64,000 nucleotides of DNA from an uncultured archaeon (GCA_963799775.1 CAWCYD010000002.1:1-64000), one strand, 5' to 3'. Shown: positions 29,456-48,389, numbered from the stretch's first letter. Notes: a model not told the origin generated them from the letters alone. Program-made: numbers and translations.

Positions 29456-29548
29456 CGGCCTTCCGGCCAGCCGGCCCATGAGCCAGGCGGGCGACGACGG
29501 GGCAGGGACCGGCCGCTGTTCTCCAGGCGCGCGGTGGAGGTTCTCTGG

Positions 29549-30284: not shown

Positions 30285-30360
30285 CGGGGCCTCCTCAGGG
30301 TAATGCATACCCTACCCATAGGGGTAACCCATATATCAACGCTCGTACCTTGGACACCCA

Positions 30361-31276: not shown

Positions 31277-31818
31277 GGTCCACAAGCGGCACGGAACGCC
31301 CTTGGATAGAGCGTTTGGAAACCCTCGCCAAATCGACAAGATTCTCCGTCTCCGACGAGGAGAGGGCAGCCATGCTGAAGGCCGCCGACGACTTGATTGG
31401 ATTCCTGACCAGGTACAAGGAATTCGTCTCACAAGTGCCCAGCGACGAGGAGCAGAAAGCCGCCTCGAGGTCCGCCGAGGTGCTGCTGGGATTTGCGAAT
31501 CGGCACCGGCACAATCAGGGATTGGCATTCATGTTTCCGGACTCCAAAGGGGGTAAGGCGACGGTGCAGAAGAGCAGGTCCAACAAGCCCCTTGCCGACG
31601 TCGAGGCGCTCATGAAGGAGTTGCAGGAACTTCCAACTTCTGAGATTGAAAAGAGGCTCTCCCGCGCGGAGCTTAGCCTCTTGGATCTATCAATCCTGGC
31701 AAGACGCCTTGGTCTCGCGGCCAAATCGAACGACACCAGGTCTCAGCTCATAGAGAGAATTGCCGCTGTCGGATTTGCGAATCGGAGAGGCTACGACTTG
31801 TTGCGAAACGACAAGTAG
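31273..31818 (+). CDS. Hypothetical helical protein coupled to ParA
   Basis: Overlaps the ParA stop; C-terminal LARRLGL...R.QLIERI resembles Rho-N/HeH. Confidence 0.55.
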   Translation: MRSTSGTERPWIERLETLAKSTRFSVSDEERAAMLKAADDLIGFLTRYKEFVSQVPSDEEQKAASRSAEVLLGFANRHRHNQGLAFMFPDSKGGKATVQKSRSNKPLADVEALMKELQELPTSEIEKRLSRAELSLLDLSILARRLGLAAKSNDTRSQLIERIAAVGFANRRGYDLLRNDK

Positions 31819-31918
31819 GACTCTGGTAGATTCTCTGCTCTGCGTAGGGCCGATTGGGCAAAGGATTAGGAACAAGTTTACGAGCGGCTTGTCCGGGCCC
31901 TCTGTGGAGGTCGCCCAA

Positions 31919-32434
31919 ATGAGCTCGCCCAAACGAATTGAGAACCTCGCATGGGTTCTCCCTCGCCCGAGCTTATCCCATTACAAGGGAGGGATGCCTC
32001 GCTTCGCTGAGATTAAGATTCTCCGTGAAATCGACTCTGACCCGAAGGTAAACTCCGAAATCAAGATTCTCCACCCCTTCGGCGGGCGCGCGGAGTTTGG
32101 TTTCAGGTGCGACGTCAATGCCGATGCGGACCCCGACTTGCGGTGCGACGCGCACCTCCTCCCGTTCAGGGATTGCACCTTTGATGTGGTGTTCCTTGAC
32201 CCGCCATATAACGAGCAATACTCAAAAGCTCTCTATGCAGCCGGCAAGCCCAGGTTCAAGAAGTACACGGCCGAGAGTGTCCGGGTGTTGAAGCCGGAAG
32301 GCTACATGGTGATGTATCACTACATGGCGACGCCGAGGATAGACGGCACCCGGCTTGTCAAGCGGATATTCATCGAGACCCGCCTCTGGCACAAACTCCG
32401 AGTAGTCCATATCCACAGAAAGGAGAAGGCGTAA
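31919..32434 (+). CDS. Small N6A/N4C-type DNA methyltransferase-like protein
   Basis: LHPFGG and FLDPPY motifs. Confidence 0.65.
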   Translation: MSSPKRIENLAWVLPRPSLSHYKGGMPRFAEIKILREIDSDPKVNSEIKILHPFGGRAEFGFRCDVNADADPDLRCDAHLLPFRDCTFDVVFLDPPYNEQYSKALYAAGKPRFKKYTAESVRVLKPEGYMVMYHYMATPRIDGTRLVKRIFIETRLWHKLRVVHIHRKEKA

Positions 32435-32439
32435 GAGCA

Positions 32440-32904
32440 GTGAGGCGGGGAGGATACAGCACCGCCGTCGTTGGCCGCTCACCTCCCCCGACCTCGGAGG
32501 CGGTGACGCGGGTGATGCGGTCAAACAAGAGCACGGGCACATCGCCGGAACTGGCGCTGGGGCGCCTGCTGAGAAAGAAGCCCGCGCGTTCGAGGTTACC
32601 AGGGAGGCCAGACTTCGTCTACAGCAGGGCGAGGCTGGCCGTGTTCGTCCACGGGTGCTGGTGGCACAGATGCCCCGTGGAGGACTATCCTCTGCCAAAG
32701 ACGCACACGGATTTCTGGCGTAGGAAGTTCGAGAGGAACGTCGAGAGAGACCGACTGAACGCAGGGGCGCTTAAAGCGATGGGCTGGAATGTTATCGTCG
32801 TGTGGGAACACGAGGTCAAGCGAGACCCAAAGGGGACGGAGCGGAGAGTCAAGGGGCTCGCCGTTGAATTATTAAGCGAGCGCGAGGCCACCCGAGGCAA
32901 CTGA
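32440..32904 (+). CDS. vsr: Very short patch repair endonuclease
   Basis: MRSNKSTGTSPE, PGRPDF, FVHGCWWH, WEHE. Confidence 0.9.
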   Translation: MRRGGYSTAVVGRSPPPTSEAVTRVMRSNKSTGTSPELALGRLLRKKPARSRLPGRPDFVYSRARLAVFVHGCWWHRCPVEDYPLPKTHTDFWRRKFERNVERDRLNAGALKAMGWNVIVVWEHEVKRDPKGTERRVKGLAVELLSEREATRGN

Positions 32905-32906
32905 CA

Positions 32907-34212
32907 ATGGCCAAGCCGCGAGAGTTCGAAGCGTTTTCCCTCTTCTCAGGGGCGGCAGGTCTCGACTACGGCCTAGAGACGGCGGGCAGGCTCCTAGGCG
33001 ACGACCTCGGCCCTGTTTCGGCGCGGTTCCGGATACGCGGCTATGTCGAGTCCGAACCCGTAATGCAGGAGACCCTCCGGCTGAACATCGCCAGAGGGGT
33101 GCTGAGCCCGGGGAAGGTCTACGGCGACATAGCTGAGATCGCAGACCCGCGGGGGGTCGTCGAGGAGTGTGGCGTTCGAGGCGAGCTCCCCCTCCTCTGC
33201 GGAGGGCCTCCCTGCCAGCCGTTCAGCACCGCGGGGCGCAGGGGGACTGTCCAGGATCCGCGCGGCTCGGTGATTTGGGAGTTCGTGCGATTCGTCCGTG
33301 AGGTCCAGACCCCAGTTCTTCCTGATGGAGAACGTGCGCGGCCTCATCTCGGCGGCCGTTCGCCACAGACCCATAAAGCAGCGGGGTAGGGGCAACCCGC
33401 CGCTGGCGCCAGAGGAGGAGCCCGGTTCCGTGTTGCGGTTGCTGCTCGCTGACTTCGAGGCCCTGGGATACCACGTCGACGTGTTCGAGGTGAACGCCGT
33501 GAACTACGGCGCGCCCCAGTTGAGGGAGCGAGTCCTGCTCATGGGCAACAAGTATAACATGACCCTGGACTTCCCAGCCCCCGCATACGGGAAAGCCGGC
33601 ACTCTCCTACGGCGGTGGCGGACGCTGGGCGAGGCGCTAGAGGGCCTCAAGGACGGAGCGGGAGAGGTGCTCGACTTCTCGCCGCGCAAGAAGAGGTATC
33701 TCGCCATGATACCGCAGGGTGGGAACTGGAGGTCGATGCCCGTCGCCACGCAGAAGGAGTCCATGGGCTCCGCCTGGTATGCCAAGGGCGGCCGGTCGGG
33801 CTGGTGGCGCAGGCTGTCCTTCGACCTCCCAAGCCCGTGCCTCGTCACGATGCCGAACCACTCCGGGACGGCCCTCTGTCACCCGACGGAGGTCAGGGCG
33901 CTGAGCCTCAAGGAATACCTGAGGGTGCAGGAGTTACCCGACGACTGGGAAGTGGCGGGAACCCTGGCGGAGCGATACAAGCAGGTCGGGAACGCCGTGC
34001 CGGTAAGGCTCGGCGAGGTGGCAGGAAAGGTCATAGGTGACGCGCTCGCGAGCCTCGGCGACGTGGAGGAGGTCAGGCCAGGCCGGAAGGTGGTCCCTAG
34101 CGCGAAGGTCTACGTGACTTCGCACGTGAGGACGCGCCGCTGGTATGAGAACGGCAAGGCCGTCGTGAGGACTGCGCCCCAAGCCCCGCCCGTCGCGGGG
34201 CTGGCAACCTGA
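32907..34212 (+). CDS. C5-cytosine DNA methyltransferase (frameshift near 33305)
   Basis: SLFSGAAG, GGPPCQPFS, ENV, QLRER, QVGNAVP. Confidence 0.92.
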
Positions 34213-35294
34213 GCGCTTCCAGAGCGAGGGCGAGCATCGAGCAGAAGGCACAAGAAGACTTCTACGCAAGGGTAAAGAAGGCCGCGCCTTTCGACCCTGC
34301 TGAGTTCGCCTCCCTTCTCCAACGGCTCGACGAGCGGAGGGTTAGGGATATCGCGGAACGACTCTCAAGGTATCTGGAGGCCAAACTGCCCGCGACCGTA
34401 AGACGCAGGGATGGCCTGAAGGACTACAAGCTCAACCCATACGTGCTGCTCACCTCTGCCGCGACTCGCAGGCTCAACGAGCCGCGGCGGTTCGCGTCAT
34501 TCATCTTCGACGCGAAGTTCTACGCCGGTCTGGAGACCTCGTTCGGCAAGTCCATAGAGTCGGAGCTGTTGGCGCTGTATGAGTGGAAGAAGCCGGAGGA
34601 AAAGACCGCAGAGGAGAATTCGCTGAAGGGGCTGCCAAGGGTCGAGAAGGCCAGGAGGCGCGTCAACTCCGTGTGGAGAGAGGTGGACAGCAGCCGGATG
34701 GTGGGGAACAGGCGCTTCTTCCTCACGGTGAAGTCGGGCCCCAACTGCATAAACGACACTCAGGTCGACAACATGCAGGAAGCCATCGCCAAGCACCATT
34801 TGACATGGCTTGACCAGACCCGAAGGTCTCTTCCGGACGTTCGAGGCATAGACGTGGTTGTCGGGCTGACATACGGAACCACGACAACCACGAACAACAA
34901 GGAGAACCAAATACTCGTCAAGCTCTTGGAGCATGGGTTCAGGGAGACCAAGGAAAACGGGGTGCTCGTCTCAGGCAAGAACGATGCTGTAAGGGTCTAC
35001 CGCCGCATCGGGCGGGACTTCTGGGCACTAGTGGGCTCTCCGGCTGCGCCCGCGAGGGGCGGGCACACGTTCCTTGAGGTTCTATTGGGCCTCGCGCTTG
35101 CGTTGAAGCAGGGGAGCCTAACGGAGACCATGGAGAAGATGGTGGACCACAAGATAGACGAGCTGGCAGTGGCAATCTCCTCCCTAAAGCTCGAGGGGCA
35201 ACGGCTGCCCGACTGGGTATCCCAGACCTTCGGGGCACAAGAGCTGAGCGTTTTCATCGACGCGGTCTCCTCGTTCTACGACGGCGGCCTTTAG
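34209..35294 (+). CDS. Putative type II restriction endonuclease (PmeII-like)
   Basis: Frame open from a CTG overlapping the MTase TGA; LNPY, ETSFG, EVD...VKSGPN motifs. Confidence 0.65.
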   Translation: MSASRARASIEQKAQEDFYARVKKAAPFDPAEFASLLQRLDERRVRDIAERLSRYLEAKLPATVRRRDGLKDYKLNPYVLLTSAATRRLNEPRRFASFIFDAKFYAGLETSFGKSIESELLALYEWKKPEEKTAEENSLKGLPRVEKARRRVNSVWREVDSSRMVGNRRFFLTVKSGPNCINDTQVDNMQEAIAKHHLTWLDQTRRSLPDVRGIDVVVGLTYGTTTTTNNKENQILVKLLEHGFRETKENGVLVSGKNDAVRVYRRIGRDFWALVGSPAAPARGGHTFLEVLLGLALALKQGSLTETMEKMVDHKIDELAVAISSLKLEGQRLPDWVSQTFGAQELSVFIDAVSSFYDGGL

Positions 35295-35366
35295 TCCATC
35301 CTGGATGGGCTTTTTGTGGTTAAGGAGGGATGGCCCTGGACACCGAATCTTGCCGGCGGAAGGCAA

Positions 35367-35660
35367 CTATACTGCGACAAGCAACCAGGCACTGAACACG
35401 AGGAGTAGGAACGCCACTATCGCGACAGAAATCGACGGGGCGCCGCGGATTTCTTCCCAACCCTGCCACAGGCCGTAGAGCGAGAGCGCGAGGAACCCCA
35501 GATCCAGAAGGACCGCAACGGCGGGGAAGAGCGCGTCGAGGAACACCTGGACGCAGAACCAAGCGACGAACGACTTCATCGCCTCCGGAATGCCGGTGAG
35601 CACCCCGTTCAAGACGGTGTCAATCCCGTCGAAGAAGTCGTCGATGACCGACATGGGCAA
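35367..35660 (-). CDS. Small membrane protein
   Basis: Hydrophobic 97-aa ORF. Confidence 0.45.
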   Translation of the reverse strand: MPMSVIDDFFDGIDTVLNGVLTGIPEAMKSFVAWFCVQVFLDALFPAVAVLLDLGFLALSLYGLWQGWEEIRGAPSISVAIVAFLLLVFSAWLLVAV

Positions 35661-35763
35661 ACGTGGTGCAGGGTACTAAAAAAAATTTTTGCGCCGAGTC
35701 AAGGCTCTTTTGGCGCAATGACGTTGGTATTCGAGATTCCCGCAAGGATTTAAGATTCGCATC

Positions 35764-37083
35764 GTGAAAGGAAGGGCGGTGTCAACCAGTCAAGCGACGT
35801 TGCGCGAAGAGACTGCCGATGAGATGCTCCAGCTAATCGAACGAAGGAAGACAACCTATGGCAAGGCGAAGATGACCTCTGCCTTAGTGAAGGTGGGCGG
35901 AAGCTGGGAGAATTACCTCACTAGGTTTGTCGTCCTCTCTTCCGAGGATGCCAAGCAATACCAGAGGACGATGAACTACGGGGATCTCTTGCTGAAGGAG
36001 ACCGTCGTTGACATCCCGAAAGTCGAGTCGATGTTGCAGTTGTTATCACATGGGAATCAACTCACACTTCCTGGGTTGGATGCACGACCGATTGATGGTG
36101 ACCTCCAGAGATACCCCGCATCGCCGTCCTATTATCAGCCCAGCAATGATCCAGGATTCAATCTTGAATGGCCGGGCAATGTATTCGTGGTCGCGCCGAA
36201 ATCCAACCGGCAGGTTCAGCTTCCTAATGGTCCAACCTGCGCCATAGACGAGCCGCTTTACGATTCCGGGAATGCCGCGGTGAATGATTTCTTTGGATTC
36301 CTCGCGAGCAACGTCCCCTGGAGGGGATCTGCGATATTCATGCTTCCAAACTACAAAGCCAAGATAACCCAAATCAAGCTCGGCTCCACGAGAATTACGG
36401 TCACTTTTGCTCTCGGGAAGGACTCGCGCTACTCTGACCTGCTGGCGAAAATGTATCTTGAGTCCGCCCAAGGCATTGCGCAGAGAGACTTCGAACCGAA
36501 GGAAGGGGAGAACGTGATTCCCATAGGCATCGCGCCGCACCTGTACGTAATCTATCTGTTCTCGAAGGCCGGGGGAGAGGTTGTGGATTTCCGGCGCTTT
36601 GGAGCTGGATGGACCAACCTGAGAGACGTGGTGATTGAAACAACTCCCGACAACATCGAGCAGATAATCAGCCGCGGCGAAAATAACCGCGTTGAGTTCA
36701 AACTGGCAATTCCCAAGAAATGGGAAGACTTCGCAGAAACAGCAGTCTCGATGTCAAACTCCAGCGGAGGGATTATTTTCCTGGGAGTGGACGACGACAC
36801 TACTGTCGTGGGCGTCGACGATCCGAAAATCGTTGACACCATAACTGATGCGCTAAGGAATCTCAGCGACCCGTGGATTAATCCGAAGATAACCACCCAG
36901 GTGGTTCAGGGCAAGACCGTAGCGGTCGTTGAAATCAGTCAGGGGACGAGAAAGCCGTACGTATTGAGGGCTAGAGGCCCGATGGTTCGGATTGGCGCGA
37001 CCGATAGAATCGCGACGCGGGATGAAATAGTCGCTCTCGCAACGAATCAGAGTCCGTGGACCTCAGCACCTGGAGTCGTCTGA
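35764..37083 (+). CDS. Protein with C-terminal Schlafen AlbA_2 domain
   Basis: GENNRVEFK, AVSMSNSSGGIIFLGVDDD, PYV...VRIGAT. Confidence 0.8.
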   Translation: MKGRAVSTSQATLREETADEMLQLIERRKTTYGKAKMTSALVKVGGSWENYLTRFVVLSSEDAKQYQRTMNYGDLLLKETVVDIPKVESMLQLLSHGNQLTLPGLDARPIDGDLQRYPASPSYYQPSNDPGFNLEWPGNVFVVAPKSNRQVQLPNGPTCAIDEPLYDSGNAAVNDFFGFLASNVPWRGSAIFMLPNYKAKITQIKLGSTRITVTFALGKDSRYSDLLAKMYLESAQGIAQRDFEPKEGENVIPIGIAPHLYVIYLFSKAGGEVVDFRRFGAGWTNLRDVVIETTPDNIEQIISRGENNRVEFKLAIPKKWEDFAETAVSMSNSSGGIIFLGVDDDTTVVGVDDPKIVDTITDALRNLSDPWINPKITTQVVQGKTVAVVEISQGTRKPYVLRARGPMVRIGATDRIATRDEIVALATNQSPWTSAPGVV

Positions 37084-37090
37084 GAGCAAC

Positions 37091-37615
37091 TCAATCTTCG
37101 AAGCACGGCCCAAGACTCGACCATGACTCTTCTGACCATTCCACGTCCGGGCGGTCCTTGTATCTCACTGCTACGTGGAATCTTATGAAGATTCCGAATC
37201 GGTAGCCCAACTCCTTTTGATAGTTTGAAATCTTCCGCTTGTCGCACTTTCCTTCGCTTTCGGGATTCGTGTCCTTCTTCGCCTCTATGATTAGGAAATT
37301 GTTCTTGGTTCCTCTTTCATGGACGACTATGTCGGGATAGACGGTCTCGCCAAGGTCGTCATCAGATGATACACTTTTGGGCTTCAGATGGAGTCTCTTT
37401 GTTTCATATTCATCTCTGTTGTACTCGCAATCGACATCCCAATCATGGAAATACTCCTCGAGATGGATGGCGAACTTGTGGGTTATCGATCGCTCGTTGG
37501 CGTCCTTCTCAAGAAGCTTCCAGTCGTTCTCGCGAAACTTGACCCACGCGCCTTCAATTGCCCGCTCGACATACCCTTTGTCATGGTCGGTCGGCACAGC
37601 ATTTCGTCTTTTCAT
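37091..37615 (-). CDS. PD-(D/E)xK nuclease-like hypothetical protein
   Basis: NERSITHK, DCEYNR, YPDIVVH, IIEAKK. Confidence 0.65.
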   Translation of the reverse strand: MKRRNAVPTDHDKGYVERAIEGAWVKFRENDWKLLEKDANERSITHKFAIHLEEYFHDWDVDCEYNRDEYETKRLHLKPKSVSSDDDLGETVYPDIVVHERGTKNNFLIIEAKKDTNPESEGKCDKRKISNYQKELGYRFGIFIRFHVAVRYKDRPDVEWSEESWSSLGPCFED

Positions 37616-37942
37616 AGACCGTCAAACGGACCATTAAGCTTTGGCATTGAAGGCATACGTGCCAAAGATGAGGTGGCCTGAACCGCGCGGAGGGGCCGGT
37701 GCATTTCAGCTCGTAACTGGCCGAGACCTCTGCGTCAACGTTCGAAGAAGAAAAATGGGGAGGGTGCCCGCTACGGTTCCGCCGCGGGCCCTGCCGGGCC
37801 CGAACCCAGGTACAGCTTCGCTCCCGAAAGCCTAAATCTCTTCGATGAATCTTAACCCTAGATGGGATATTCAAACCTGCTCGAGTGGCTTAAACCGTTA
37901 AAATATTCCAGCACGAAACGGCTTTACGGGTCTTTTTTGCTT

Positions 37943-38013
37943 GACAGGTAGAAGTTATCTTCTACCTCTACTTCGACATTTAGACGATATGTAGAAGTCA
38001 ACTTCTACATATC
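37943..38013 (+). repeat. att-like site 1 (71 bp)
   Basis: GACAGGTAGAAGTTATCTTCTACCT CTACTTCGACATTTAG AC GATATGTAGAAGTCAACTTCTACATATC. Confidence 0.9.
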
Positions 38014-38235
38014 CGCACCTGAATTTCCTCGCTGGAATCAGGGAAATCGACGGTTGTTCAGCCGAGGCCCTAACGTCTCCGGAGCGGCAGAACTGAAGGG
38101 GTGTCACCGCATCATGCCTAGTTCGAATCGATTCATCTTGCTCTAGTGTTGACGAACTAGACAAGAGTTTCGGAGCGACCTAGAAAGCGAATAAATTCAA
38201 TCTGGCATGGAGGAGATAAAAATCCCTGGTCTTTC

Positions 38236-38478
38236 TCATCCCAAACTTTTTTTGGCGGTTGCCTGAATTTCGGGAATCTTTGGCTTGACATAAAGCTCCA
38301 AGGCCCTCTTCAAGTTCAAGAATTCCACTCCAACAAGCCGTTCGTTCTCACCGTAATCGAATAGGACATCCAATGAATCCACTTTCCCTTCTCGGGTCTT
38401 CTTCACGTGTCCAGCGCTCAATTTGATATAAGCTGCATTGGCATCCACATCAAACTCGACTTTGGGCGTCTTGTCCAT
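38236..38478 (-). CDS. DUF2283-like putative antitoxin
   Basis: EFDVDANAAYIKL...DY.EN.RLVGVEFLN. Confidence 0.8.
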   Translation of the reverse strand: MDKTPKVEFDVDANAAYIKLSAGHVKKTREGKVDSLDVLFDYGENERLVGVEFLNLKRALELYVKPKIPEIQATAKKSLG

Positions 38479-38485
38479 AGCTAAA

Positions 38486-38698
38486 TCATTGGTAATACGC
38501 AGTCTTCACCTTAAAATCATTTCCTCGGCGATAAGCAATCACCACTAGAATCTTGTTACCGAAGTGACGCTCGAATGCCCATTTGTCGGGTTCGTCATAC
38601 AACCTGGTTGAGCTCGTCGGCCGCTTGAGAGCTCGCAGAACTTCGGATTTCGAGATTCGTCTCTTACCCATCCTGTCCTCCGCATGTTTCGTATACAC
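38486..38698 (-). CDS. DUF4258-like (RelE/BrnT-fold) putative toxin
   Basis: YTKHAEDRM.KR.IS..EV..AL..P...VKTAY. Confidence 0.8.
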   Translation of the reverse strand: MYTKHAEDRMGKRRISKSEVLRALKRPTSSTRLYDEPDKWAFERHFGNKILVVIAYRRGNDFKVKTAYYQ

Positions 38699-38944
38699 TA
38701 CGTTGGAAGCGGAGTGACTCGCGTTCTCAGCCTGTTCTTCAATAATCGGAACACTAGATAACCTATGGTGCTCTTGTCAGACTTGTCGGATCATTTTCTC
38801 AAGCTGGAACGCAAACTGTTTCAGTACCCCCAATCTCTCCGCACCTTGGTGGCGAATGTGATGACTCGCTGGGTACTCGACTATCGCAATTGCGTCGATG
38901 ATCTTCCGCGACGTGTTTGAGCTAGGAGATGCCGGATTGGGCAT

Positions 38945-39015
38945 GATAGGTGGCAGTTAACTTCTACCTGAACTTCGACATTTAGATGATATGTAGAAGT
39001 TGACTTCCACATATC
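38945..39015 (+). repeat. att-like site 2 (71 bp)
   Basis: 61/71 identical to site 1 by manual alignment. Confidence 0.9.
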
Positions 39016-39085
39016 GCCTGGCCCCCTGGGAACCGAAAAGGTTAGGGTTCGGCGAAGCGCTAGCGATTGGCGTAGCTTCTTCGTG

Positions 39086-40534
39086 CTAGGGCTTCAAAGG
39101 CAAGTCCTTAGGCCCGCCTCTGAGAGAGAGCGAGGTGGCGACGCCGACGCCGGCGAAGACCGCCGCAGCTAGAAAGGCGTACCGAAACGCGGTGACGACC
39201 TCGGCGCTAGGTGCCGCGACTCCCATGCCCAGGGTCACCAAGCCTATGACCGAGACGGCAACGGCTAGGCCGATGGGCCCTCCTACCTGCCTCGACGTAT
39301 TGATAAGCCCAGAAGCAATCCCCTCTTCCCCGGGCTTGGCAGCCGAGAGCCCAACGATGCTCGATGCCGTCGAAGCGATGGAAGAACCCACAACGGCAAT
39401 GAGCTGTGCTGGGAGGATCACCGTGAAGTAGTTCGAGGTCAACGAAATCTGGGTGAAGAGGAGCATCCCGGCCGTGAATGTCGCCATCGCTCCAATCATG
39501 ACGTCCTTGGCCCCCACCCGCCTAACCAGCCTCGGCGCCGCGAACCCGCCCAAGAATGCGTAGAGAAGCGAACCGGGCAAGAGCGCCGCTCCCGCGTAGA
39601 TGGGCGAGTAGGAGCGCAAGACCTGCAGATAGGTGGTAATGACGAACACCATCAGGACCATGCAGGCAAAGACAATCAGCATGGTAGCGTTGGCAAAGAA
39701 GATCTTCCTGCGCCTGAGGAACCCCAACGGCATCAGCGGTGCGGGGGAGAAGTGCTCAAGAGCGATGAAACAGGCGAGGACTCCGGCAGCGAGGGCGAAG
39801 ACCAGGTAGGTCGTGTAGGAAGGGTCCCCGTTGCCGACGCCCGTCAAGGCGTAGACCAATAGCATCAGCCCCCCTGTTACAGAGACCGCTCCAGGCAGAT
39901 CGAGGGTCGCGTGCTTCCTCTCCTGTCCCCTCGGGTCCGGGACGAATCTGATCGCGAGTAGGGCTATCAAGACACCTATGGGGACGTTGACGAAGAATAT
40001 CCACCTCCAGCCGAGCTCCTGGGTCAGGACTCCGCCCAGCACGATTCCGGCCGAGAACCCCGATGCGGCGACCGCGGTGAAGATGCCCAGGACCTGGTTC
40101 AGCCTTCCCAGGGGCGCGAATATCCTGACTATCATGGCCAGTCCCGTGGCCGAACAGAGGGCCGCACCGATGCCCTGCACGACCCTGGCGGCTATCAGGA
40201 TCTGCTCTGACGGTGCAAGTCCACCCGCGAGAGATGAGAGAGAGAAGACGACCAACCCGACCATGAACAGCGTCTTTCGGCCATACAGGTCCGAGGCGCG
40301 GCCGCTCAGCAAGAGCAGGCCTGCGAACGTGAGGCCGTAGGCGCTGACTATCCACTGGAGGTCAGGCAGAGACATCTGGAGGTCAGTCCGTATGGTTGGC
40401 AGAGCTATCTGGACGATTGAGAAGTCTAGCACAACCATGAACTGCGCAGTAACTAGGAGTCCCAGAACTAGTCCAAGCCGTCGCGGAGGACTATTTGCGG
40501 GAGGTTCCTCAGAGGGCAAAAAATCTCGAACCAC
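39086..40534 (-). CDS. DHA2/EmrB-QacA MFS efflux transporter
   Basis: AQFMVVLDFSIV.IALP, WIVSAY, GWRWIFFVNVP; about 14 TM. Confidence 0.9.
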   Translation of the reverse strand: MVRDFLPSEEPPANSPPRRLGLVLGLLVTAQFMVVLDFSIVQIALPTIRTDLQMSLPDLQWIVSAYGLTFAGLLLLSGRASDLYGRKTLFMVGLVVFSLSSLAGGLAPSEQILIAARVVQGIGAALCSATGLAMIVRIFAPLGRLNQVLGIFTAVAASGFSAGIVLGGVLTQELGWRWIFFVNVPIGVLIALLAIRFVPDPRGQERKHATLDLPGAVSVTGGLMLLVYALTGVGNGDPSYTTYLVFALAAGVLACFIALEHFSPAPLMPLGFLRRRKIFFANATMLIVFACMVLMVFVITTYLQVLRSYSPIYAGAALLPGSLLYAFLGGFAAPRLVRRVGAKDVMIGAMATFTAGMLLFTQISLTSNYFTVILPAQLIAVVGSSIASTASSIVGLSAAKPGEEGIASGLINTSRQVGGPIGLAVAVSVIGLVTLGMGVAAPSAEVVTAFRYAFLAAAVFAGVGVATSLSLRGGPKDLPLKP

Positions 40535-40585
40535 AGGCGCTATACTTAGTATAGTTTATAAATCGATAAGGGAGAGAAAGTATAG

Positions 40586-41044
40586 TTGGAATACATCCAA
40601 GGCGAGCGGGAACGGGGTTCAGACGAGAGCGCCCTGCTCCCGTCTGCGAGTTTCAACCATTGCCCGATAACCATTTCCGCCGGGCTGCTCGGGAAGAAGT
40701 GGACGATGCTGATCCTTCGGGACATAGGGATGCGCAACATCCAGCGCTTCAACCGCCTCCTCCAATCGGTGCGGGGCATCACCCCCCGCGTGCTTTCGCA
40801 GCGCCTCAAGGAGCTCAATCAGGAGGGATACATCGAGTGCGTCGAGGAGCGGTCCCCCACTGTGGTCCGATGGACCCTGACCGAGAAGGGAAGGGACACG
40901 CTTCCAATCCTCATGAGCTTCATAGCCTTCGGCTCGAAGTGGTATGCCGACCAGGTCTTCCATGACAAGAAGCCAAGGACTCTCAGCAACCTCTTCCCGA
41001 CTCCTCAGGCTAGGGAAGTCATGGAAAGGTTCACCCGGCCCTAG
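40586..41044 (+). CDS. HxlR-family regulator
   Basis: CPI...LLGKKWTMLILRD, RFN.L..GITPRVLSQRLKEL. Confidence 0.9.
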   Translation: MEYIQGERERGSDESALLPSASFNHCPITISAGLLGKKWTMLILRDIGMRNIQRFNRLLQSVRGITPRVLSQRLKELNQEGYIECVEERSPTVVRWTLTEKGRDTLPILMSFIAFGSKWYADQVFHDKKPRTLSNLFPTPQAREVMERFTRP

Positions 41045-41147
41045 CGAGCCCATAGTTCCCATCGTGAACGTTTCGCCATTTTGGAATACCACAACCATGA
41101 AGGCAAATGGCAAGAGTTATATGCTAACTAAATCACTTAGTGACCAA

Positions 41148-41375
41148 ATGGCAACGGTCAAAGTGGACGAAAAGACATACGCCGAGCTGAATCGTATCGC
41201 AGGGTACCTCAGAGCGGCAAGAGGGAGGCCGGTGCCGATAGACGAGGTCATTCGGGAACTCCTCAGCAAGAAAAGGGCTTCGGAATTCATCGGATCGTGG
41301 AAGATGAGCGACGAGGAAGAGAGGCGAGTCTTCGGCGAACTGCATGAGGCGTGGAAGAAATGGAAACAAGCCTAG
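41148..41375 (+). CDS. VapB-like antitoxin
   Basis: MATVKVDEKTYAEL...DEVIRELL..FIGSWKMSDEE; overlaps the PIN gene. Confidence 0.75.
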   Translation: MATVKVDEKTYAELNRIAGYLRAARGRPVPIDEVIRELLSKKRASEFIGSWKMSDEEERRVFGELHEAWKKWKQA

Positions 41376-41768
41376 TCCTGGACACCGATGTCCTCGTCTC
41401 TGACCTTCGGGGCATGGACCTCCATTCTGAAGGAACTAGAAGGCAAAGATCCAGCCACGACCGTGGTTAATGCCTTTGAGTTGTTCCACGGCGCCTACAA
41501 GTCAAAGCAGTCTTCTGCAAATCTGTCCGCCACTCGGGGCCTCCTTGGGAGCCTGAGACTCGTCGACTTGAGCGTGAAGGCTGCCGAGAGAGCTGGAGAA
41601 GTGCTGGCTCAGGCACAAAAGTCCGGACAAAATATCGAAATCCGAGACCTCCTGATTGGGTGCATCGCGAGAGAGGAAGGGCTGTCGCTGCTCACGCACA
41701 ACGTCAAGCACTTTCAAAAGATTCCGGGTTTGACGGTAGTAGATGCTGCCCGGTACGCTGATAGGTAG
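41360..41768 (+). CDS. vapC: VapC PIN-domain toxin (frameshift near 41420)
   Basis: VLDTDVL, AFELFHG, RDLLIG, THNVKHF; stop codon lies inside att site 3. Confidence 0.82.
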
Positions 41769-41843
41769 AAGTTAACTTCTACCTGAACTTCGACATTTAG
41801 GCGATAGGTAGAAGTTAACTTCAACATGAACTTCGACATCTGA
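41760..41843 (+). repeat. att-like sites 3a/3b (43-bp tandem); probable outermost attR
   Basis: GATAGGTAGAAGTTAACTTCTACCTGAACTTCGACATTTAGGC followed by GATAGGTAGAAGTTAACTTCAACATGAACTTCGACATCTGA. Confidence 0.9.
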
Positions 41844-42088
41844 GGACGCAAAGTCAAGGTCGATTCGGACCGGCTAGGAGACGGAGCAGGGTCAACCCCT
41901 GTCTTTGTCCCCTCGCGGTCGCCTCGGAGCACCTTTCAGAGTCTTCGGCACCGGCTGGGGCAGAACTGCTTCAGAGAATCGGAACTTAACTGGCCTTCGT
42001 AGCGTTCCATGCAAAGTCAGTTAACCGCCTGAGACCGCTCGGTGCCATGAGTTCCAGCACTCAGTCGAGCGTCAGGAGGGAGACACGC

Positions 42089-42514
42089 ATGGCGACGCAC
42101 GTCAGCCCCTACCTGAGGTTCAAGGGGAATTGCACCGAGGCAATGAATTTTTACGAGAACTGCTTCGGTGGAGACCTGAATCTCACGACCATCGCTCAAT
42201 CGCCGATGGCAGGTCAAATGCAAGGAGAAGATCCGAAGCACGTCTTCCAAGCCAGCCTGACGAGCGGCGGCATCGAGCTGCTAGGTTCGGACATGGCTCC
42301 GCGGGAGGGTCTGAAGAAAGGCAACGCGATGGCGCTCGCGTGTCAGTGTGCGAGCGAACAAGAGCTGAGGAACCTCTTCGCAAAGCTCTCCGCCGGTGGC
42401 AAGGTGAACTCCCCCGTGGACAAGGCAGCGTGGGGCGGACTCTACGGCCAACTCGTCGACAAGTTCGGGAACGAGTGGATGCTCACCTTCATGGAGCAGC
42501 GACACCGGCCCTAG
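42089..42514 (+). CDS. PhnB-like VOC protein
   Basis: SPYLRFKGNC.EAMNFY, WGGLYGQLVDKFGNEW. Confidence 0.85.
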   Translation: MATHVSPYLRFKGNCTEAMNFYENCFGGDLNLTTIAQSPMAGQMQGEDPKHVFQASLTSGGIELLGSDMAPREGLKKGNAMALACQCASEQELRNLFAKLSAGGKVNSPVDKAAWGGLYGQLVDKFGNEWMLTFMEQRHRP

Positions 42515-42718
42515 CGGGAAGCTCTCTTCTTCCTCCGGGGTGCCAGTCGAAGATTCCTTCTCATCCCTCTCTTGAGAGGGCGGAGCTTCTCTGGGTCCAT
42601 GACGTCCTCGAGGATTCCCGGCCCGACGGTCCCGAAGTACGCCTGGAGACTCGCGATCTATTGCTCCACCGTCGCAGGGAAATGGAAGGCGGAGGCCCAT
42701 GTCGGGGTTCGGAGACCC

Positions 42719-44199
42719 TCAGGCCAGGGACGAGGGACGCACTATCGTGAATCCGGCATTCGAATGATTGGAGGACTTGGACTCGATCGCGTCGGCCCAC
42801 TTCCTTGTGACCTCGATGAGCTCGCCTCGCAGGTCTTCACCCGTCAAGCCCATCCTGCGTATCTCTTCTATTCCATCCGCCAACTCGTTGAGGCCTAGGA
42901 CATCCCTGATCCACTTCTCGTAATCCCTCCTCTTGGCGTGGAACTCGATCGAATCGATGGGCGACCTTTCGAGGGCCTCTATGAATCCCTCGACGGAGGT
43001 CGCAAGTATCCCCGTGTAATGCCCGAAGTTGGTGAAACAGTAGAACGCGGTCTCTAGAGGCGAAGCTATGATTCCAGATACCACCTCATCCGAGAGGATC
43101 GATACGCTCGGCCAGATCCTGCTCCCGCTCAGGACGGTCGCCCTGTCGCCGATCACGCACCCGGGACCGATTATCGATCCGCTCACGGAGGCATTGTCGT
43201 GGACCACAACGGTCTCGCCTATCACGCTATCTGAGATGGTGCAGTTCCGCCCAACATACACCCTCTCCATTATGGCGCTGCGCTCGATCGAGCTGCCCGA
43301 AGAGATCAGCGCGTTCCTCTTCACCGAGCAATCTCTACCTATCTTCACCCTTTCCTCGATCGTGACGTCTCTCTCTATGATGACCGGCTCAGCAATCTGG
43401 ACCCCCCGTGCTATTGAGGCTGACCCGTGAGTCATCGCGACGTTCGGCGACGATGTCTGCGGACCTGGTTGCGGTCGGCTCGTCGTCTCCAACACCCATT
43501 TCATCCCGCCCAGGAATCCCTCGAGATTTCCGATGTCCACCCAGAACGCGTCCGAGGCGAAACCATACAACTTCTTGTGGAGCCTCAAGAGGTGCGGAAA
43601 GAGGTCCTTGGCAAAATCCCACTTGTTGTCAGACAGGTAGTCTATCGATTCCGGCTCCATCACATAGAAGCCTGTGCTGACGAGGTTGCTTCTCGCTTCT
43701 CCCCTCTTCGGCTTCTCTTGGAACTCTGTGATCATGTTCTTGTCATCGAGCAGCGCTACGCCGTACTCCGAAGGGTCGGGCACCCTTGTCAGCACGATGG
43801 TCGTCAGGGAACCGACCTTGTGATGAAAGTCTACCGCCTCGCGAAGCGGAATCTCGGTCAAGGTGTCCGCCTGGGCAATCAAGAAAGTTTCGTCTAGCAG
43901 GTGTTCGACAAGTTTGAGACACCCGGCCGTCCCGATATGAAGCCCTTCTGGTTCGACCGCATAGGTGATACGCACGCCGTAGCTCGAGCCGTCACCGAGA
44001 TAGTCCATGATCTGGTCCCTCTGGGGACCCTGACCACCGTGACGACCTCGTCAAAGCCCTCTTTTGCAAGGCGCGTGAGCACGTAGTGGATGGAGGGCTC
44101 CGGACCCAACGGGATCATCGGTTTCGGCCGCGTGAAGGTTAGCGGTCGCAGCCGCGTCCCTTCCCCGGCCGCAAGGACCACCGCTTTCGCCCCACTCAC
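42719..44199 (-). CDS. NDP-sugar pyrophosphorylase with hexapeptide repeats and C-terminal DUF5752-like domain (frameshift near 44025)
   Basis: LAAGEGTRLRPLT, EKP, WVDIG, LbH repeats, SIEFH..R.DYEKWI. Confidence 0.85.
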
Positions 44200-44243
44200 C
44201 CATCGAGAACGAGTTGGCTCCGCTCTAATTAATGGTTGCTGTC

Positions 44244-45026
44244 CTAGGCGCTCTTTGCGAAATTGCCGCTTCCGTCGGGTAATAGGTCGAAGCGGATCTT
44301 TCCGTTCTCCATCGCCAAGTTCTGGACGACGTAGTCGGAGGAGTAGGTCTTCGAGAGGGCGCCCCTGACCACCCCCACCAGGAACTGGTCCACGACCCCT
44401 TTCTTGGAGCCCGATGTCACAGGCTGGTCGATTACTACCTTGAGCCCCCTGAAGTCCCCTGAGAGCTCCAGCACTCCCAGCCCCACGGCGCCGAAGTATG
44501 CCTTTAGATTCGCGATCTCCTGCTCCACCGGCGCAGGGACGTGGAAGAGCGTCCTTATGCTGTCCATGATCTCCTCTCCCACCGTGACGCCTTGGTTGTG
44601 GAGTATCACTCCACCCGGGGTCCCGAAGGTCTTGAGGATCGAGTCGATCAGCGCCGCCCAACCCTCCGCTGAGAGCACGAAGACCCGCGTGTGGCCCGAG
44701 CGGGTCAGCGGGAACATCATGGTCTCGAACTTCACATCCGTCCTCGCTTCGATCCGAGCGTCCTTGACAAAGTCCAGTTTCTTGAGCGACTCCACAAGTT
44801 CCTTTGGCTTGACGGTCGCCCCGGCCATCTCCAAGTAGAAGATGTCGTAGCCCGTGCGCATATCGTCGGAGCATTGCAGACTGCCCGAGAGGATGTCGAT
44901 GTTCTTCTCTCCCATGATCGTCGCGAGCTTGGCGAGAACCATTGGCTTGGAGTCGACGGAGATGTAGAGCTCATAGACCTGGCGACCCTCGGGCGACGAT
45001 ATGCCCAGTGACCGAGTTTGCCTCAA
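44244..45026 (-). CDS. ACT-domain plus V4R-like regulatory protein
   Basis: DSKPMVLAKLA..MG.KNIDIL; FG..GVILHNQG...G, GLG, FLVGVVRG. Confidence 0.65.
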   Translation of the reverse strand: MRQTRSLGISSPEGRQVYELYISVDSKPMVLAKLATIMGEKNIDILSGSLQCSDDMRTGYDIFYLEMAGATVKPKELVESLKKLDFVKDARIEARTDVKFETMMFPLTRSGHTRVFVLSAEGWAALIDSILKTFGTPGGVILHNQGVTVGEEIMDSIRTLFHVPAPVEQEIANLKAYFGAVGLGVLELSGDFRGLKVVIDQPVTSGSKKGVVDQFLVGVVRGALSKTYSSDYVVQNLAMENGKIRFDLLPDGSGNFAKSA

Positions 45027-45275
45027 ATGGTCCGTATTGCGCTAGAGGAAATATAAGTAATTCGTGCGAATTCTCAAATCCATGTTAACTTTGGCGGCCT
45101 TGTGTGTTGACAATTGTCAGCCCGGCTGAAGGATGGCGCCCTTGCTCTCAGAATTCGAACTCGAGTTGGGCTTTTAAGAATTTCCAGCTCTTCAGGGCTG
45201 TTCTTGGTCCTCGATTACTGCGGCATCCTTATGCGTCTCCCTCGAAGCAACGTGTAGCTCTTGCCAGTAACGACA

Positions 45276-45990
45276 ATGTCGCCTCAGAAGGGCGCGGAAT
45301 TCGAGTCGCTGGACCAAGTGGCTGCGGCCATCGTGGAATGCAGGCGCTGCCCGAGGCTTGTCAGGTATCGGGAGTCGCTCCCGAAACGCAAGTCCTTCGG
45401 GTCGGAGGAGTACTGGCGGAGGCCGGTTCCCGGGTTCGGAGACCCGGAAGCCAGACTCGTGATCATCGGTCTCGCGCCAGCTGCGCATGGCGGGAACAGA
45501 ACGGGGAGGGTGTTCACAGGGGACGAGTCGGGAAAATTCCTGGTCAGGGTTCTCTTCGAGGCGGGTTACGCAAGCTCGCCCATTTCGTCTGGGCGAGCTG
45601 ACGGCTTGGTCTATTGCGACTGCTACGTCTCCGCCGCGGTGAGGTGCGCGCCGCCTGAGAACAAGCCGACCACGAAAGAGTTCGAGAACTGCAGCGAGTA
45701 TCTCGACTCCGAGCTAAGGCTTCTCCCGAACGCGAGGGCCGTGCTCGCGCTTGGAAAAGGCGGCCTTCGACTCCTATCTCGCCTACGCCCGCAGCAGAGG
45801 GGCAGACACGAAAGGCATGGGATTCTTCCATGGGGCCGTATACGCGCTCAGGAGTCTCCCCACTCTCTATGGCTCGTATCACCCAAGCCCTAGGAACACT
45901 TTCACGGGTAAGCTGACGAGGAGTATGCTGCTCTCCCTGCTCACGAGAATAAAGAAGGGTTCGGAGTCTTTCGACTCCGGGGCGATGTAG
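45276..45990 (+). CDS. Uracil-DNA glycosylase family 5 (UdgB-like; frameshift near 45758)
   Basis: CRRCPRL, GLAPAAHGGNRTGRVFTGD, RCAPPENKP, SYHPSPRN. Confidence 0.9.
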
Positions 45991-46033
45991 CGCTCGTCGC
46001 GAGCCTTTCGCGAGGAGTCTCAGCTCTAGCGCG

Positions 46034-46528
46034 CTATCGGGTGGAGTTAGACCCGCTCGACGTCGAGTTGGTCTCGAACATCGATGTGGAGGTTGTCACC
46101 GAACTCGAAGTTGTCGTGGAGCTCGTGCAGCTGGTCTCAATCGAGACGGTGCCGGTGCCGTTACTGGTCACGGAACTTGTAGACGTCGAATTGGAGGTCA
46201 AAGTGGCGCCGCTGGCCGGGACGCTCCCTGAGCTAGAAACAGTGCTCGTGGTCAACGTCGAGCTTGGCGTGGTAGAGTTGCAAGGCGAGCAAGGTGTGTA
46301 GGTGCCTGCACATGGCGTGGCCTTTGAGAGGTTGCTCGTGTTGGCGGTTGTGAATGGATTGGCTATGCTCGTAGTGTTGTTGGGTAGCGTACTGTTCGTG
46401 GTGGTGCTGTTGGGGTGGCTCGAGGCGAGATACACGGCGACTCCCGCGATTATGATGATAACAATCACGACTGCCGCTCCTGCTGACGCTGCGAGGCCCT
46501 TCCTGCCCTCCGTGACGTAGCTGGTCAA
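46034..46528 (-). CDS. S/T-rich membrane-anchored surface protein
   Basis: RKG followed by a hydrophobic helix (class III signal-like), then low-complexity S/T. Confidence 0.55.
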   Translation of the reverse strand: MTSYVTEGRKGLAASAGAAVVIVIIIIAGVAVYLASSHPNSTTTNSTLPNNTTSIANPFTTANTSNLSKATPCAGTYTPCSPCNSTTPSSTLTTSTVSSSGSVPASGATLTSNSTSTSSVTSNGTGTVSIETSCTSSTTTSSSVTTSTSMFETNSTSSGSNSTR

Positions 46529-46701
46529 GAAATCTCAAGTTCCAAAATGCCGACGTGCATTATATGCAAATACAGAGTCCGTATTAGATGAATGCTACAA
46601 ATCGGAACACGGAAGGCAGACCACAGTATCGGAGCAGTTCCCTCCAGAAGGGGACAAGCTAACAATAAATCGACGTGTGCTGATGACAGCGGCAGAGGAC
46701 C

Positions 46702-47487
46702 ATGGTCAGATTCCCTAGGTTCCCAAGACCGCTAATGGAGGCCTTGCATCGAAGGGGCACTGTCTTCACAATGATGTTCGTCTGCTTGGTCGCCTCCGTC
46801 TGCCTCAGCGCCGGTCTCTACCTGCTCCTAAGGGCTACAAATCCGCCGCCGCCCTACGGGCACCCTGGAGCCCCCACCTCAATTAGGGTTTGGACTGAAT
46901 CATACGCCAGCTGGAGCCAGGCAAGCCAGAGCTACGGACTGGACTTCGCCCTCAGTCTGCTGGCGCCGTTCTCGTTCCTCGCGGCGCTAGGTGTCATGAG
47001 ATTCCCCAGGGCGGCGTTCGTCACCTCGTTCTCACTCTTGAACCTTTTTTTCGCGTGGTCTTCCCATGTCATAGCCTCGATTTCTTTTTGGCTGCAATCC
47101 GGCCTGACGCAAGCGGTCTCCTCCCAAGACTTCTTCCTTTTGACGAGCCTGAGACTCTTCTTGTTCACAGGCAATGCCTATGTCGTCGCAGACGCGGAGT
47201 CTCTGGCCTTGCTCGCCGGTGTCGTCGCTTCCGCATTTCTCTTGGGCCGAGACCGCGGGAGGAGAAGGGCGCTGGTGCTCTCGACCTGGGCAGCGTCCCT
47301 CTGCCTCGTCATTCTTGGGATCGAGATCGCGGTCTTTGACTATCGCGAGCTCTTCCTGCACGTTACCCAGGCTCAAGTCGTCCTCGACCTTGCGCCGTGG
47401 TTCTCCAACGCGGACCTCCTCTTCTCGGCCCTCCTGGTCTTCTCGCTCGCGAGCCTCTCGCTCCGCCGCCCTTGGTCGGACCGCTGA
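46702..47487 (+). CDS. Hypothetical multi-TM protein
   Basis: About 6 hydrophobic segments. Confidence 0.55.
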   Translation: MVRFPRFPRPLMEALHRRGTVFTMMFVCLVASVCLSAGLYLLLRATNPPPPYGHPGAPTSIRVWTESYASWSQASQSYGLDFALSLLAPFSFLAALGVMRFPRAAFVTSFSLLNLFFAWSSHVIASISFWLQSGLTQAVSSQDFFLLTSLRLFLFTGNAYVVADAESLALLAGVVASAFLLGRDRGRRRALVLSTWAASLCLVILGIEIAVFDYRELFLHVTQAQVVLDLAPWFSNADLLFSALLVFSLASLSLRRPWSDR

Positions 47488-47617
47488 CCGGGTCATCCGC
47501 ACCCCGGAGGGCGCGCGCAGAATCTGGGGCCATCTGGCGGAGATTCACTAACAATTTTGGAACGAGTTCGGAAATCCAGTATATACTTCAAATACATGGA
47601 TGACATCGACGAAAACA

Positions 47618-48252
47618 TGACGACGACAAGAACCAAAGCAGCGACCATCGGGGTCCTCGCAGTGGCACTGGCAATAACCCTGGCCTACTCGGCCTTGGCC
47701 TTGCCCGCCTCCGCACAGGCCCAGACAAGCAACTCCACCACATCCAACTCGTCCAGTTCAGGCACAGCGACAAGCACAACGACCGCGCCCCCAGGAAGGC
47801 TCGGCGGCCCCGGCTGGGGCCCCTTCGGCGCAGGGCCTCTCCGCGGCGGCCACGGCCTCGGCCAGCAACCGGCCAACCTCACGGTCGGCCAGACAATCAC
47901 CATCACAAGCTCGAGCGGAAACTATGTGGTCGTGGGCAACCATGACCAGAACGGGACAGCGTCAGGCACGCTGACGTTCACCGTCACCGGCAAGCTAGCC
48001 GGCGGCTACACGCTCTCAATCACTTCAGGCAGCCTGGTCGTGAGCGGGACCACATACACAGTCTCCTCGGGCTCGGCCCAGATGGGAAGGGACGCCGCCC
48101 GACTCGTGGGACAGGGAGCCACAAGCTCCTCCGGTGAGTTCCTCGTGACCGCATCCGCCCATGGCAGCTTCGTGGGCACAACAGCAACGATGTCGCTAGA
48201 CCTCAGCAACGGGTCGACCGAGTACCTCGTCTTCCTTTCAGGCACAGCCTAG
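47618..48252 (+). CDS. Secreted beta-rich hypothetical protein
   Basis: Signal peptide, S/T linker, G/P-rich segment, beta domain; T-rich tract downstream. Confidence 0.6.
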
Positions 48253-48389
48253 AAGGACTGCGAGGCTACTCGGCCCGCCTTATTTTTTCCCTGATGGAGA
48301 CCCTTCTCCGCAGCGGGTCACGCAACGTAGACGTTTCCTTCAGAAGACTAATATCGCGTCAGACGTCGTTTCCTACCGGTTTTCAAGCC

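Follow-up and report, generated by a model that had tools for sequence, protein, structure and literature searches.

Behind the glutamine synthetase gene glnA of an uncultured archaeon lies an array of related repeats, which are probably attachment (att) sites, left where mobile elements integrated site-specifically, time and again, at the final codons of that gene. The array is located within a stretch of DNA of 64,000 nucleotides (GCA_963799775.1, CAWCYD010000002.1:1-64000; hereafter the window), where an earlier reading of the sequence alone, referred to below as the original prediction, had described four sites bounding integrase-less modules rich in toxin-antitoxin genes and had likened them to an integron or to dif modules served by one integrase. 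The part of that proposal which concerns accretion at glnA stands, in that the att sites are anchored at glnA, are tied to one glnA-adjacent integrase and bound integrase-less, toxin-antitoxin-rich modules, whereas the analogy to integrons and dif modules falls, and the integrase turns out to belong to an ordinary integrated element of 17.8 kb, termed E1. What is new here is a tandem island of att sites at a new target gene, a very regular architecture of these sites and integrase-less modules that appear to insert as units. The anatomy of the sites, the boundaries of E1, the conservation of its element family, the dichotomy between two left ends and the clean insertion of a module in one genome, absent from a related one, are established and form the basis on which the mechanism is proposed.

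Attachment sites at the glnA end and the element E1

The four repeats are real and non-random. Repeat search delineates a 75-nt family with units starting at 37939, 38941 and 41756 (85% and 81% identity; spacings of 1002 and 2815 nt), and a fourth, half-length unit begins 43 nt past the third. Repeat search and alignment agree with the four sites predicted to start at 37943, 38945, 41760 and 41803 and with the predicted identity of 61/71 between sites 1 and 2 (1 versus 3, 60/71; 2 versus 3, 61/71). Each repeat unit contains the motif ACTTCGACATYTRR. The 18-mer dyad box GTAGAAGTTAACTTCTAC is matched seven times in the window with up to three mismatches (0.01 expected) and the core ACTTCGAYATNTRR six times with up to one mismatch (0.22 expected), the match at 30599 being an unrelated one-mismatch match that was rejected as a site. 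Within the whole 2.47-Mb genome, which is 82% complete, both box and core are confined to the glnA locus, and the core search gave no further core in the window past 41843.

A fifth related site at 20191–20228, with box and core matches at 20197–20228, is the true 3′ end of glnA. Indeed, all sites contain the last glnA codons, reading L-Y/N-F-D-I-stop, with a core formed by ACTTCGACAT plus the stop codon, and all five cores lie on the + strand in direct orientation. Site 1, judged by its sequence, is the attR of E1. The original prediction had missed the fifth site, the glnA codons within every site and this identity of site 1. The features of the locus are, with strands where assigned:

18747–20214, + strand: glnA (glutamine synthetase), the integration target (Pfam Gln-synt_N, 4.6e-28; Gln-synt_C, 2.1e-116)
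20191–20214, + strand: attL core, the last 7 glnA codons and the TAG stop (TTCTACCTCTACTTCGACATCTAG), a direct repeat of 37960–37983
20211–20228: type A dyad box (CTAGCAGTTAACTGCTAC), the E1 left end, at +10 from the core start
20215–37983: E1, a 17.8-kb cryptic integrated element (Pfam gene content; matching attL and attR)
20245–21537, + strand: tyrosine integrase of E1, 430 amino acids, intact and unsplit by integration (Pfam Phage_integrase, 1.6e-18)
37943–38013, + strand: site 1, E1 attR joined to the left end of module 1 (repeat, box and core matches); upstream (P) box 37948–37965, core 37970–37983, type B box 37991–38008 inside a 28-bp palindrome at 37986–38013
37984–38985: module 1, 1002 bp, GC about 48%, with a toxin-antitoxin-like pair (Pfam): DUF2283, 38236–38478, − strand; DUF4258, 38486–38698, − strand
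38945–39015, + strand: site 2; P box 38950–38967, core 38972–38985, type B box 38993–39010
38986–41800: module 2, 2815 bp (Pfam MFS_1, HxlR, PIN): major facilitator superfamily (MFS) transporter, 39086–40534, − strand; HxlR, 40586–41044, + strand; VapB-like open reading frame (ORF) with no Pfam match, 41148–41375, + strand; PIN/VapC, 41388–41768, + strand
41760–41800, + strand: site 3; P box 41765–41782 (a perfect palindrome), core 41787–41800
41803–41843, + strand: site 4, a cargo-less 43-bp unit and terminal attR; box 41808–41825, core 41830–41843 ending in TGA, then native flank

We assign 20215–37983 to an ordinary integrated element because it has matching cores, a left-end box and an integrase directly behind the glnA stop. 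The window glnA ends in PYEFYLYFDI followed by TAG, and the attL and attR cores of E1 (20191–20214 and 37960–37983) are, by reading, identical at 23 of 24 positions. In addition, 20225–20236 (CTACCTGTCAAG) forms a perfect 12-bp inverted repeat of 37940–37951, and a reconstructed attP would therefore have symmetric arms. The integrase, correctly foreseen as the only one, next to glnA and 16–17 kb away from the array, lies 16.4–17.7 kb upstream of site 1. Its GMRVGE, HCLRKF, GH and AY motifs align with the Arg, HxxR, His and Tyr positions of XerA (5hxy), the closest solved structure (6e-8), and we take the aligned XerA residues to be the catalytic ones. Apart from the integrase, E1 encodes a winged helix-turn-helix (wHTH) regulator, DnaJ, a ParA-like ATPase and a methyltransferase, as well as Vsr, a split Dcm, an EcoO109I-like restriction endonuclease and a Schlafen/AlbA_2 protein, the last four of which form a defence-like block at 32440–37083. 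The backbone of the element (the integrase, orf21470, the wHTH gene at 26229, orf27171 and orf27856) is shared with a 12.8-kb element in the related genome G017 at 87–98% amino acid identity; orf21470, located behind the integrase, looks toxin-like by eye and has no Pfam or NCBIfam match. Viral contigs searched for free or viral forms of E1 yielded no relative of the integrase and no match to the predicted attP pattern.

Several reading frames at the locus are interrupted. The N domain (ORF from 18747) and C domain (ORF 19069–20214) of glnA are out of frame with each other, a 1-nt indel being apparent near 19.1 kb, and the glnA of relatives is a single open frame of about 490–520 amino acids. 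Likewise, dcm (32907–34212) is broken into two parts, and vapC in module 2 apparently begins with codons in another frame (about 41362–41400). The breaks in glnA, dcm and vapC may be either long-read assembly indels or real pseudogenes.

The sites in the window and its relatives follow a strict layout. The P box stands at −22 relative to the core in all 9 cases, and the downstream box takes one of two forms, such that type A, the E1-type left end, places it at +10 (16 cases) together with CTGTCAAGG, whereas type B places it at +21 or +22 (8 cases) within a 28-bp palindrome (GATATGTAGAAGTYRACTTCTACATATC), which reads as GATATGTAGAA-GTCAAC-TTCTACATATC in an 11-6-11 layout. The dyad symmetry of the boxes is maintained by compensatory changes at pairs 5/14 and 6/13, as in GTAGCAG...CTGCTAC and GTAGTGG...CCGCTAC. 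The type A left end recurs at 15 sites in relatives and metagenome contigs. An integrase follows the type A left end in all 13 evaluable cases, two further ones lying at contig ends, and follows the type B left end in none of 10. The P arm of the modules (GATAGGTAGAAGTTAACTTCTACCT) and that of E1 (GACAGGTAGAAGTTATCTTCTACCT) agree, by reading, at 23 of 25 positions. Since the modules share the right arm of E1 yet have another left end, they are not simple deletion derivatives of E1.

Junctions internal to the array have the order box-core-box, as would result from recombination of an attP with an occupied site, and only the last site runs into native flank. The stop codons follow the same division, with TAG, or TAA in G016 and in the locus L070, at element-supplied ends and TGA followed by native flank at the terminal sites of the window, G017, G009 and G014. 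The hexamer preceding the core is frequently CTGAAC, which would give Asn at a conserved Tyr of glnA and therefore belongs to the element arm. This points to a crossover to the right of CTGAAC, within ACTTCGACAT.

Integrase-bearing elements and integrase-less modules in relatives

The boxes were sought with up to two mismatches in 22 other genomes of the genus of the window and in 38 genomes of other genera, and were found in 7 of the 22 and 0 of the 38. In 18 of the 22 genomes glnA could be located, and up to 20 kb downstream of it was examined in 15. The same layout behind glnA is present in related soil Nitrososphaerales genomes, and the variable number, order and content of modules downstream of glnA that the original prediction had anticipated is indeed seen. 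Integrase orthologues (67–96% amino acid identity) lie directly behind the glnA stop in five genomes of the genus (G016, G017, G014, G018 and G004), all of which have a left end consisting of the stop codon plus CAGTTAACTGCTACCTGTCAAGGCTTAAATG. Among eight metagenome contigs with an E1-type left end, seven have it at the glnA stop and seven have the integrase downstream of it, the match in contig L076 comprising 27 residues at the contig end; the remaining contig without integrase, L074, stops 34 nt past the site. On the 44-kb metagenome contig L077 (1–1560), the E1 left end is preceded not by glnA but by a degenerate, longer, boxless glnA pseudo-end and a low-GC gene. It follows that a third kind of element uses the site too and that E1 does not invariably lie closest to glnA.

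Between genomes, the integrase is more similar than glnA (96% versus 88% for G017 and 86% versus 74% for G004; in genus g9, integrase fragments at 90% versus glnA at 66–70%), which indicates horizontal movement. Integrase-less units bounded by glnA pseudo-ends occur once in G017 (1.8 kb), G014 (4.9 kb), G022 (2.3 kb) and G012 (1.2 kb), twice in G009 (3.1 and 2.0 kb) and three times on contig C15 of G002 (1.3–1.7 kb), and further units in G015, G005 and G016 are cut by contig ends. Thus sized, twelve integrase-less units span 1.0–4.9 kb, and three bounded integrase-bearing elements measure 8.9, 12.8 and 17.8 kb. Directly behind glnA, G011, G021, G007 and G005 look empty; in G011, whose glnA is 93–94% identical at the amino acid level, no element follows the gene, and synteny with the window resumes at 53461.

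As the original prediction held, the modules are devoid of a recombinase, with Pfam Phage_integrase matching 0 of the 7 ORFs in the window modules and 0 of 38 ORFs in or beside the modules of relatives. The predicted contents of the window modules were likewise recovered by Pfam (DUF2283, DUF4258, MFS_1, HxlR and PIN), the genes lying on both strands and including their own regulators. Toxin-antitoxin pairs are present in about half of the modules. The Pfam cargo of the relatives' units comprises PIN/MazE/RHH pairs, TetR, TrmB, AsnC and HTH_10 regulators, an ABC transporter, dehydrogenases, a luciferase-like oxidoreductase, RibD_C, an alpha/beta hydrolase, XPB plus DUF790, and others. The VapBC genes of module 2 are 81% identical in DNA to G002:C15:1411-2047, which likewise adjoins a box. 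The MFS and HxlR genes of this module share 73% identity with a pair of ordinary chromosomal genes in G017. No box or core lies near the MFS and HxlR loci of six other genomes, and these loci are therefore ordinary chromosomal copies.

The clearest view of a module as a unit comes from another genus of the family. DNA of module 1 has no match in 21 genomes of the genus of the window, and among 60 genomes of the family its only match is G072, whose glnA is 67% identical at the amino acid level. Behind the glnA end, G072 carries an integrase-less unit of 1,986 bp with a box at each end, consisting from left to right of a type-B-like box, a pyridoxal phosphate (PLP)-dependent enzyme, a DUF2283/DUF4258 pair and a P box plus core, and the pair is 60% identical in amino acids to that of module 1 and occupies the same position. 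The related genome G082 presents the empty site, its flanks aligning to G072 at 92% and 94% around exactly this unit, with an overlap of 11 nt at the core. The unit of G072 is thus a clean insertion of an integrase-less module that is absent from G082. No E1-type integrase is found in G072, where the best match (29%) lies on another contig, and E1-type integrases stand behind glnA in three other genomes of this genus (G036, 50%; G073 and G074, 90% fragments). At least four further loci of the genus have a second core-like motif less than 1.5 kb from glnA and represent candidate sites.

A cargo-less core-box-core unit of 43 bp closes the array both in the window (41801–41843) and in G016:C15 (L067, reverse strand 5760–5816), and may be either the scar of a box-by-box deletion or an inherited landing pad. 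Synteny downstream of the window's final att site resumes at about 50925 with G022 and at about 53461 with G011. The intervening 9 kb or so (41844–50900) are also variable, with a VOC/glyoxalase gene at 42047, an NTP transferase gene at 42719–44008 and others, and neither a core nor a box can be recognised there. Away from glnA, single boxes accompanied by degenerate cores are found at L068 (G017:C7, about 131396, about 200 kb off) and L069 (G010:C227, about 138), where they may be secondary sites or relocated remnants. At L047 (G004:C34, oriented 295–520) the glnA end and E1 left end occur twice, on either side of a run of N in the scaffold, possibly through assembly collapse of tandem or heterogeneous copies. 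We also note a small stand-alone ORF in the E1-type element of L070 (7263–7373 of the oriented copy) with 51% identity to the last ~37 residues of the integrase; it was rejected as a second integrase remnant, being a stand-alone ORF that resembles the C-terminal tail of the integrase, and this tail may be a separable domain.

Proposed serial integration and its alternatives

In the mechanism that we favour, which accounts for the whole anatomy of the locus, the attP of an incoming element would be built around a core imitating the end of glnA (...ACTTCGACAT plus stop), with one dyad box, resembling GTAGAAGTTAACTTCTAC, 22 bp upstream and another on the downstream side, and the tyrosine integrase would exchange strands within a roughly 10-bp invariant core. 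Each new arrival would thereby supply a working glnA end and shift the old end and all earlier arrivals downstream, such that every internal junction would become an attP-like box-core-box site. The resulting order in the window would be glnA with attL, E1, site 1, the 1.0-kb toxin-antitoxin module, site 2, the 2.8-kb module, site 3, the 43-bp unit and lastly the original glnA end (TGA) with native flank. The modules would represent non-autonomous passengers, comparable to cis-mobilizable elements (CIMEs), that have the right-end box and core of E1 and their own palindromic left end, and that would either rely on an E1-type integrase acting in trans or travel jointly with E1 as a composite, remaining in place after its departure. 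A crossover between two internal sites of the box-core-box kind would be predicted to release a circle with one complete site.

A further step, which we put forward tentatively and hold as slightly more doubtful than credible, is that soil Nitrososphaerales share a pool of recombinase-less cargo cassettes of 1–5 kb that are captured, stacked and released at the glnA stop by a visiting E1-type integrase crossing genera. Such cassettes may carry toxin-antitoxin pairs, efflux pumps, regulators and oxidoreductases, with the 28-bp palindrome at one end and the box and glnA-mimicking core at the other.

Several points weigh against serial integration with mobile modules. The boxes as binding sites of the integrase and the exact crossover point are both deduced from sequence patterns, and we infer that the modules are moved by the E1 integrase in trans. 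E1-type integrases are missing from the module-bearing genomes G009, G012, G022 and G072 (best matches of 28–57% identity or fragments), which are 54–88% complete; any mobility of modules in these genomes would imply that the integrase has departed or escaped assembly. Decay is seen in the degenerate cores of G002:C15, a split metallo-beta-lactamase (MBL) gene in G017 and the apparently frameshifted vapC of the window, and part of every array is therefore fossil. The MFS and HxlR cargo of module 2 resembles ordinary chromosomal genes. In addition, type B ends may also belong to autonomous elements that escaped sampling, the metagenome scan having covered type A ends. Excision was sought in assembled low-coverage contigs from three runs of one soil study, the best of which holds 0.26 of the sampled words, and no excision joints or circles were seen in these contigs, which are uninformative on absence. 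One soil contig in this set runs from the E1 attR core straight into sequence resembling the native flank of G011, and another leaves the window sequence exactly at 38013, each giving the weak support of a single contig.

The modules might instead be decayed, immobile remains of once integrase-bearing elements integrated at glnA, among which toxin-antitoxin genes survive by resisting deletion, an explanation that we regard as unlikely yet serious. Integrated archaeal elements lose integrases (PMC8371274), and tandem integration followed by such loss is the published default for these elements (PMC8371274, PMC6563490). A history of this kind would suit the degenerate sites and broken genes within arrays, the frequency of toxin-antitoxin pairs and the several module-bearing genomes without a cognate integrase. 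Simple deletion within E1, with its type A end at +10, cannot however produce modules with a type B left end at +21, and no integrase remnant is found by any of the 10 type B ends or among the 38 ORFs scanned. Every module has two intact ends, which random decay would not have spared, and G072 and G082 differ by exactly one module, cut at the core. Nor do the relatives present the segments as internally decayed, integrase-bearing islands, the outcome that the original prediction had named as its own refutation, the left ends being different and none of the 38 ORFs a recombinase.

Recombination by the host Xer system, in which the 28-bp palindromes would be dif-like sites and host XerA would move the modules in the manner of pdif modules or integrative mobile elements exploiting Xer (IMEX), appears improbable. 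By reading, the type B palindrome has an 11-6-11 geometry, which is the layout of dif/Xer sites and keeps this small rival alive; XerA is also the structure nearest to the integrase, and the 43-bp core-box-core unit of the window and G016:C15 looks like a box-by-box deletion scar. Against this stands the restriction of the box to the glnA locus in its own genome, and hence the lack of a chromosomal dif resembling it in the 82% that is complete, together with the position of the core between two boxes at every junction, the location of the G072/G082 breakpoint in the core rather than the box, and the linkage of a dedicated integrase to the glnA locus. The cores are all direct, unlike the alternating pdif sites, and assignment as a pdif-type module was rejected on both this orientation (5/5 cores direct) and the XerA profile score of the integrase (74 bits; cut-off 220). 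We give still less credence to a true integron-like platform, in which one resident integrase beside glnA would capture promoterless cassettes at a fixed attI-like site. A single integrase does head an array of site-bounded, toxin-antitoxin-rich units, but it scores 41.5 bits against the integron-integrase profile TIGR02249 (cut-off 265) and 21.5 against NF011946 (cut-off 435), and it is part of a mobile element of 9–18 kb that is absent from many module-bearing genomes. The sites, as the original prediction had itself observed and as reading bears out, lack the attC motif GTTRRRY/RYYYAAC, since GTTAACT, GTTATCT and GTTGACT all depart from GTTRRRY. The units, moreover, have regulators of their own and genes in both directions, and a mobile integron was ruled out. 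The least credible explanation dispenses with mobile DNA and takes the palindromes for locally duplicated operators or terminators of neighbouring genes. Perfect dyads are typical of protein-binding operators, and as single strands the boxes fold into strong hairpins (z −4.5 to −6.4), with an alternative fold that pairs box 1 with box 2 and leaves the core in the loop, although such folding supports no conclusion because dyad protein sites fold likewise. Each repeat, however, reproduces the region around the glnA stop, the element enclosed by the repeats bears an integrase and has an attL and an attR that match, and no Rfam family matches 18000–44000. The repeats moreover bound indels between related genomes, and the occupied and empty pair contradicts duplicated operators or terminators.

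The gain and shuffling of accessory genes in soil archaea related to ammonia oxidisers are poorly known, and the glnA stop provides a well-defined and repeatedly used landing site. With a candidate integrase, a precise site architecture and small units, one of them a clean insertion, the locus makes trans-mobilisation of cassettes in archaea directly testable, and the glnA 3′ end can serve as a marker for flexible-genome islands in Nitrososphaerales metagenome-assembled genomes. Should the cassette pool prove true, it would represent, in archaea and anchored at a gene end, a counterpart of the cassette traffic of integrons or CIMEs; should the modules be mere fossils, the locus would be an ordinary tandem island at a new target gene.

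Comparison with known systems

E1 has the hallmarks of archaeal non-suicidal (pNOB8-like) integrative elements, namely an intact integrase, direct att repeats of which one lies in the target gene, and empty sites in relatives. For the modules, the accretion-mobilisation model of CIMEs is the closest functional analogue. In this model, developed for integrative and conjugative elements (ICEs) of Streptococcus, integrase-less units lie between the att sites of a tandem integrase-bearing element, and internal sites let a unit excise either by itself or within a composite; CIMEs are regarded as deletion derivatives of ICEs. The glnA modules similarly lack a recombinase and are bounded by E1-type att sites in tandem with an integrase-bearing element. 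They differ in that they have their own left end and do not derive from E1 by deletion, reside in an archaeal host and carry no conjugation genes, and their mobilisation by the integrase of the partner element is putative, with indirect support from the G072/G082 indel at the core.

Among thaumarchaeal integrated elements, 14 of 68 sit at the 3′ end of a protein gene, where they provide a replacement stop codon, and sites are re-used in tandem, according to the main text of Krupovic et al. 2019 (PMC6563490). E1 shares with the elements in that text the 3′-distal target within a protein gene, the substitute stop, the intact integrase by attL, the formation of arrays and the gene content of cryptic elements with defence cargo. 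The att sites presented there are generally short (13 bp in one example), whereas the glnA sites combine a 10-bp core with phased dyad boxes of 18–28 bp, and runs of 1–5 kb integrase-less units with intact ends, as seen at glnA, are not described in that text. Within the literature searched, no report of an archaeal element integrating into glnA was found, and glnA is absent from the main-text targets of PMC6563490, whose Table S2 may list more. In the tycheposon islands of Prochlorococcus (bioRxiv 10.1101/2020.12.28.424599), new elements likewise push older ones inward and leave partial copies of the target between units, and adaptive cargo and an integrase next to the target gene are further common features. 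Tycheposons use tRNA targets and their remnants include fragmented integrases, whereas a protein gene end is used here and no integrase fragments are seen in the modules.

The integron and dif-module framing of the original prediction founders on integrase scores far below the cut-offs, the lack of attC motifs, the direct cores and the modules' own regulators on both strands, even though the resemblance in organisation is genuine. Integrons and Acinetobacter pdif modules comprise small site-bounded units, many with toxin-antitoxin pairs, and rely on a tyrosine recombinase encoded elsewhere. The glnA array is equally composed of small, site-bounded, toxin-antitoxin-rich units without a recombinase of their own. 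It is distinct in having neither an IntI-type integrase nor attC motifs, in units that bring promoters and regulators and run on both strands, in direct-repeat cores rather than alternating inverted Xer sites, and in a location at the end of a chromosomal gene rather than on a plasmid.

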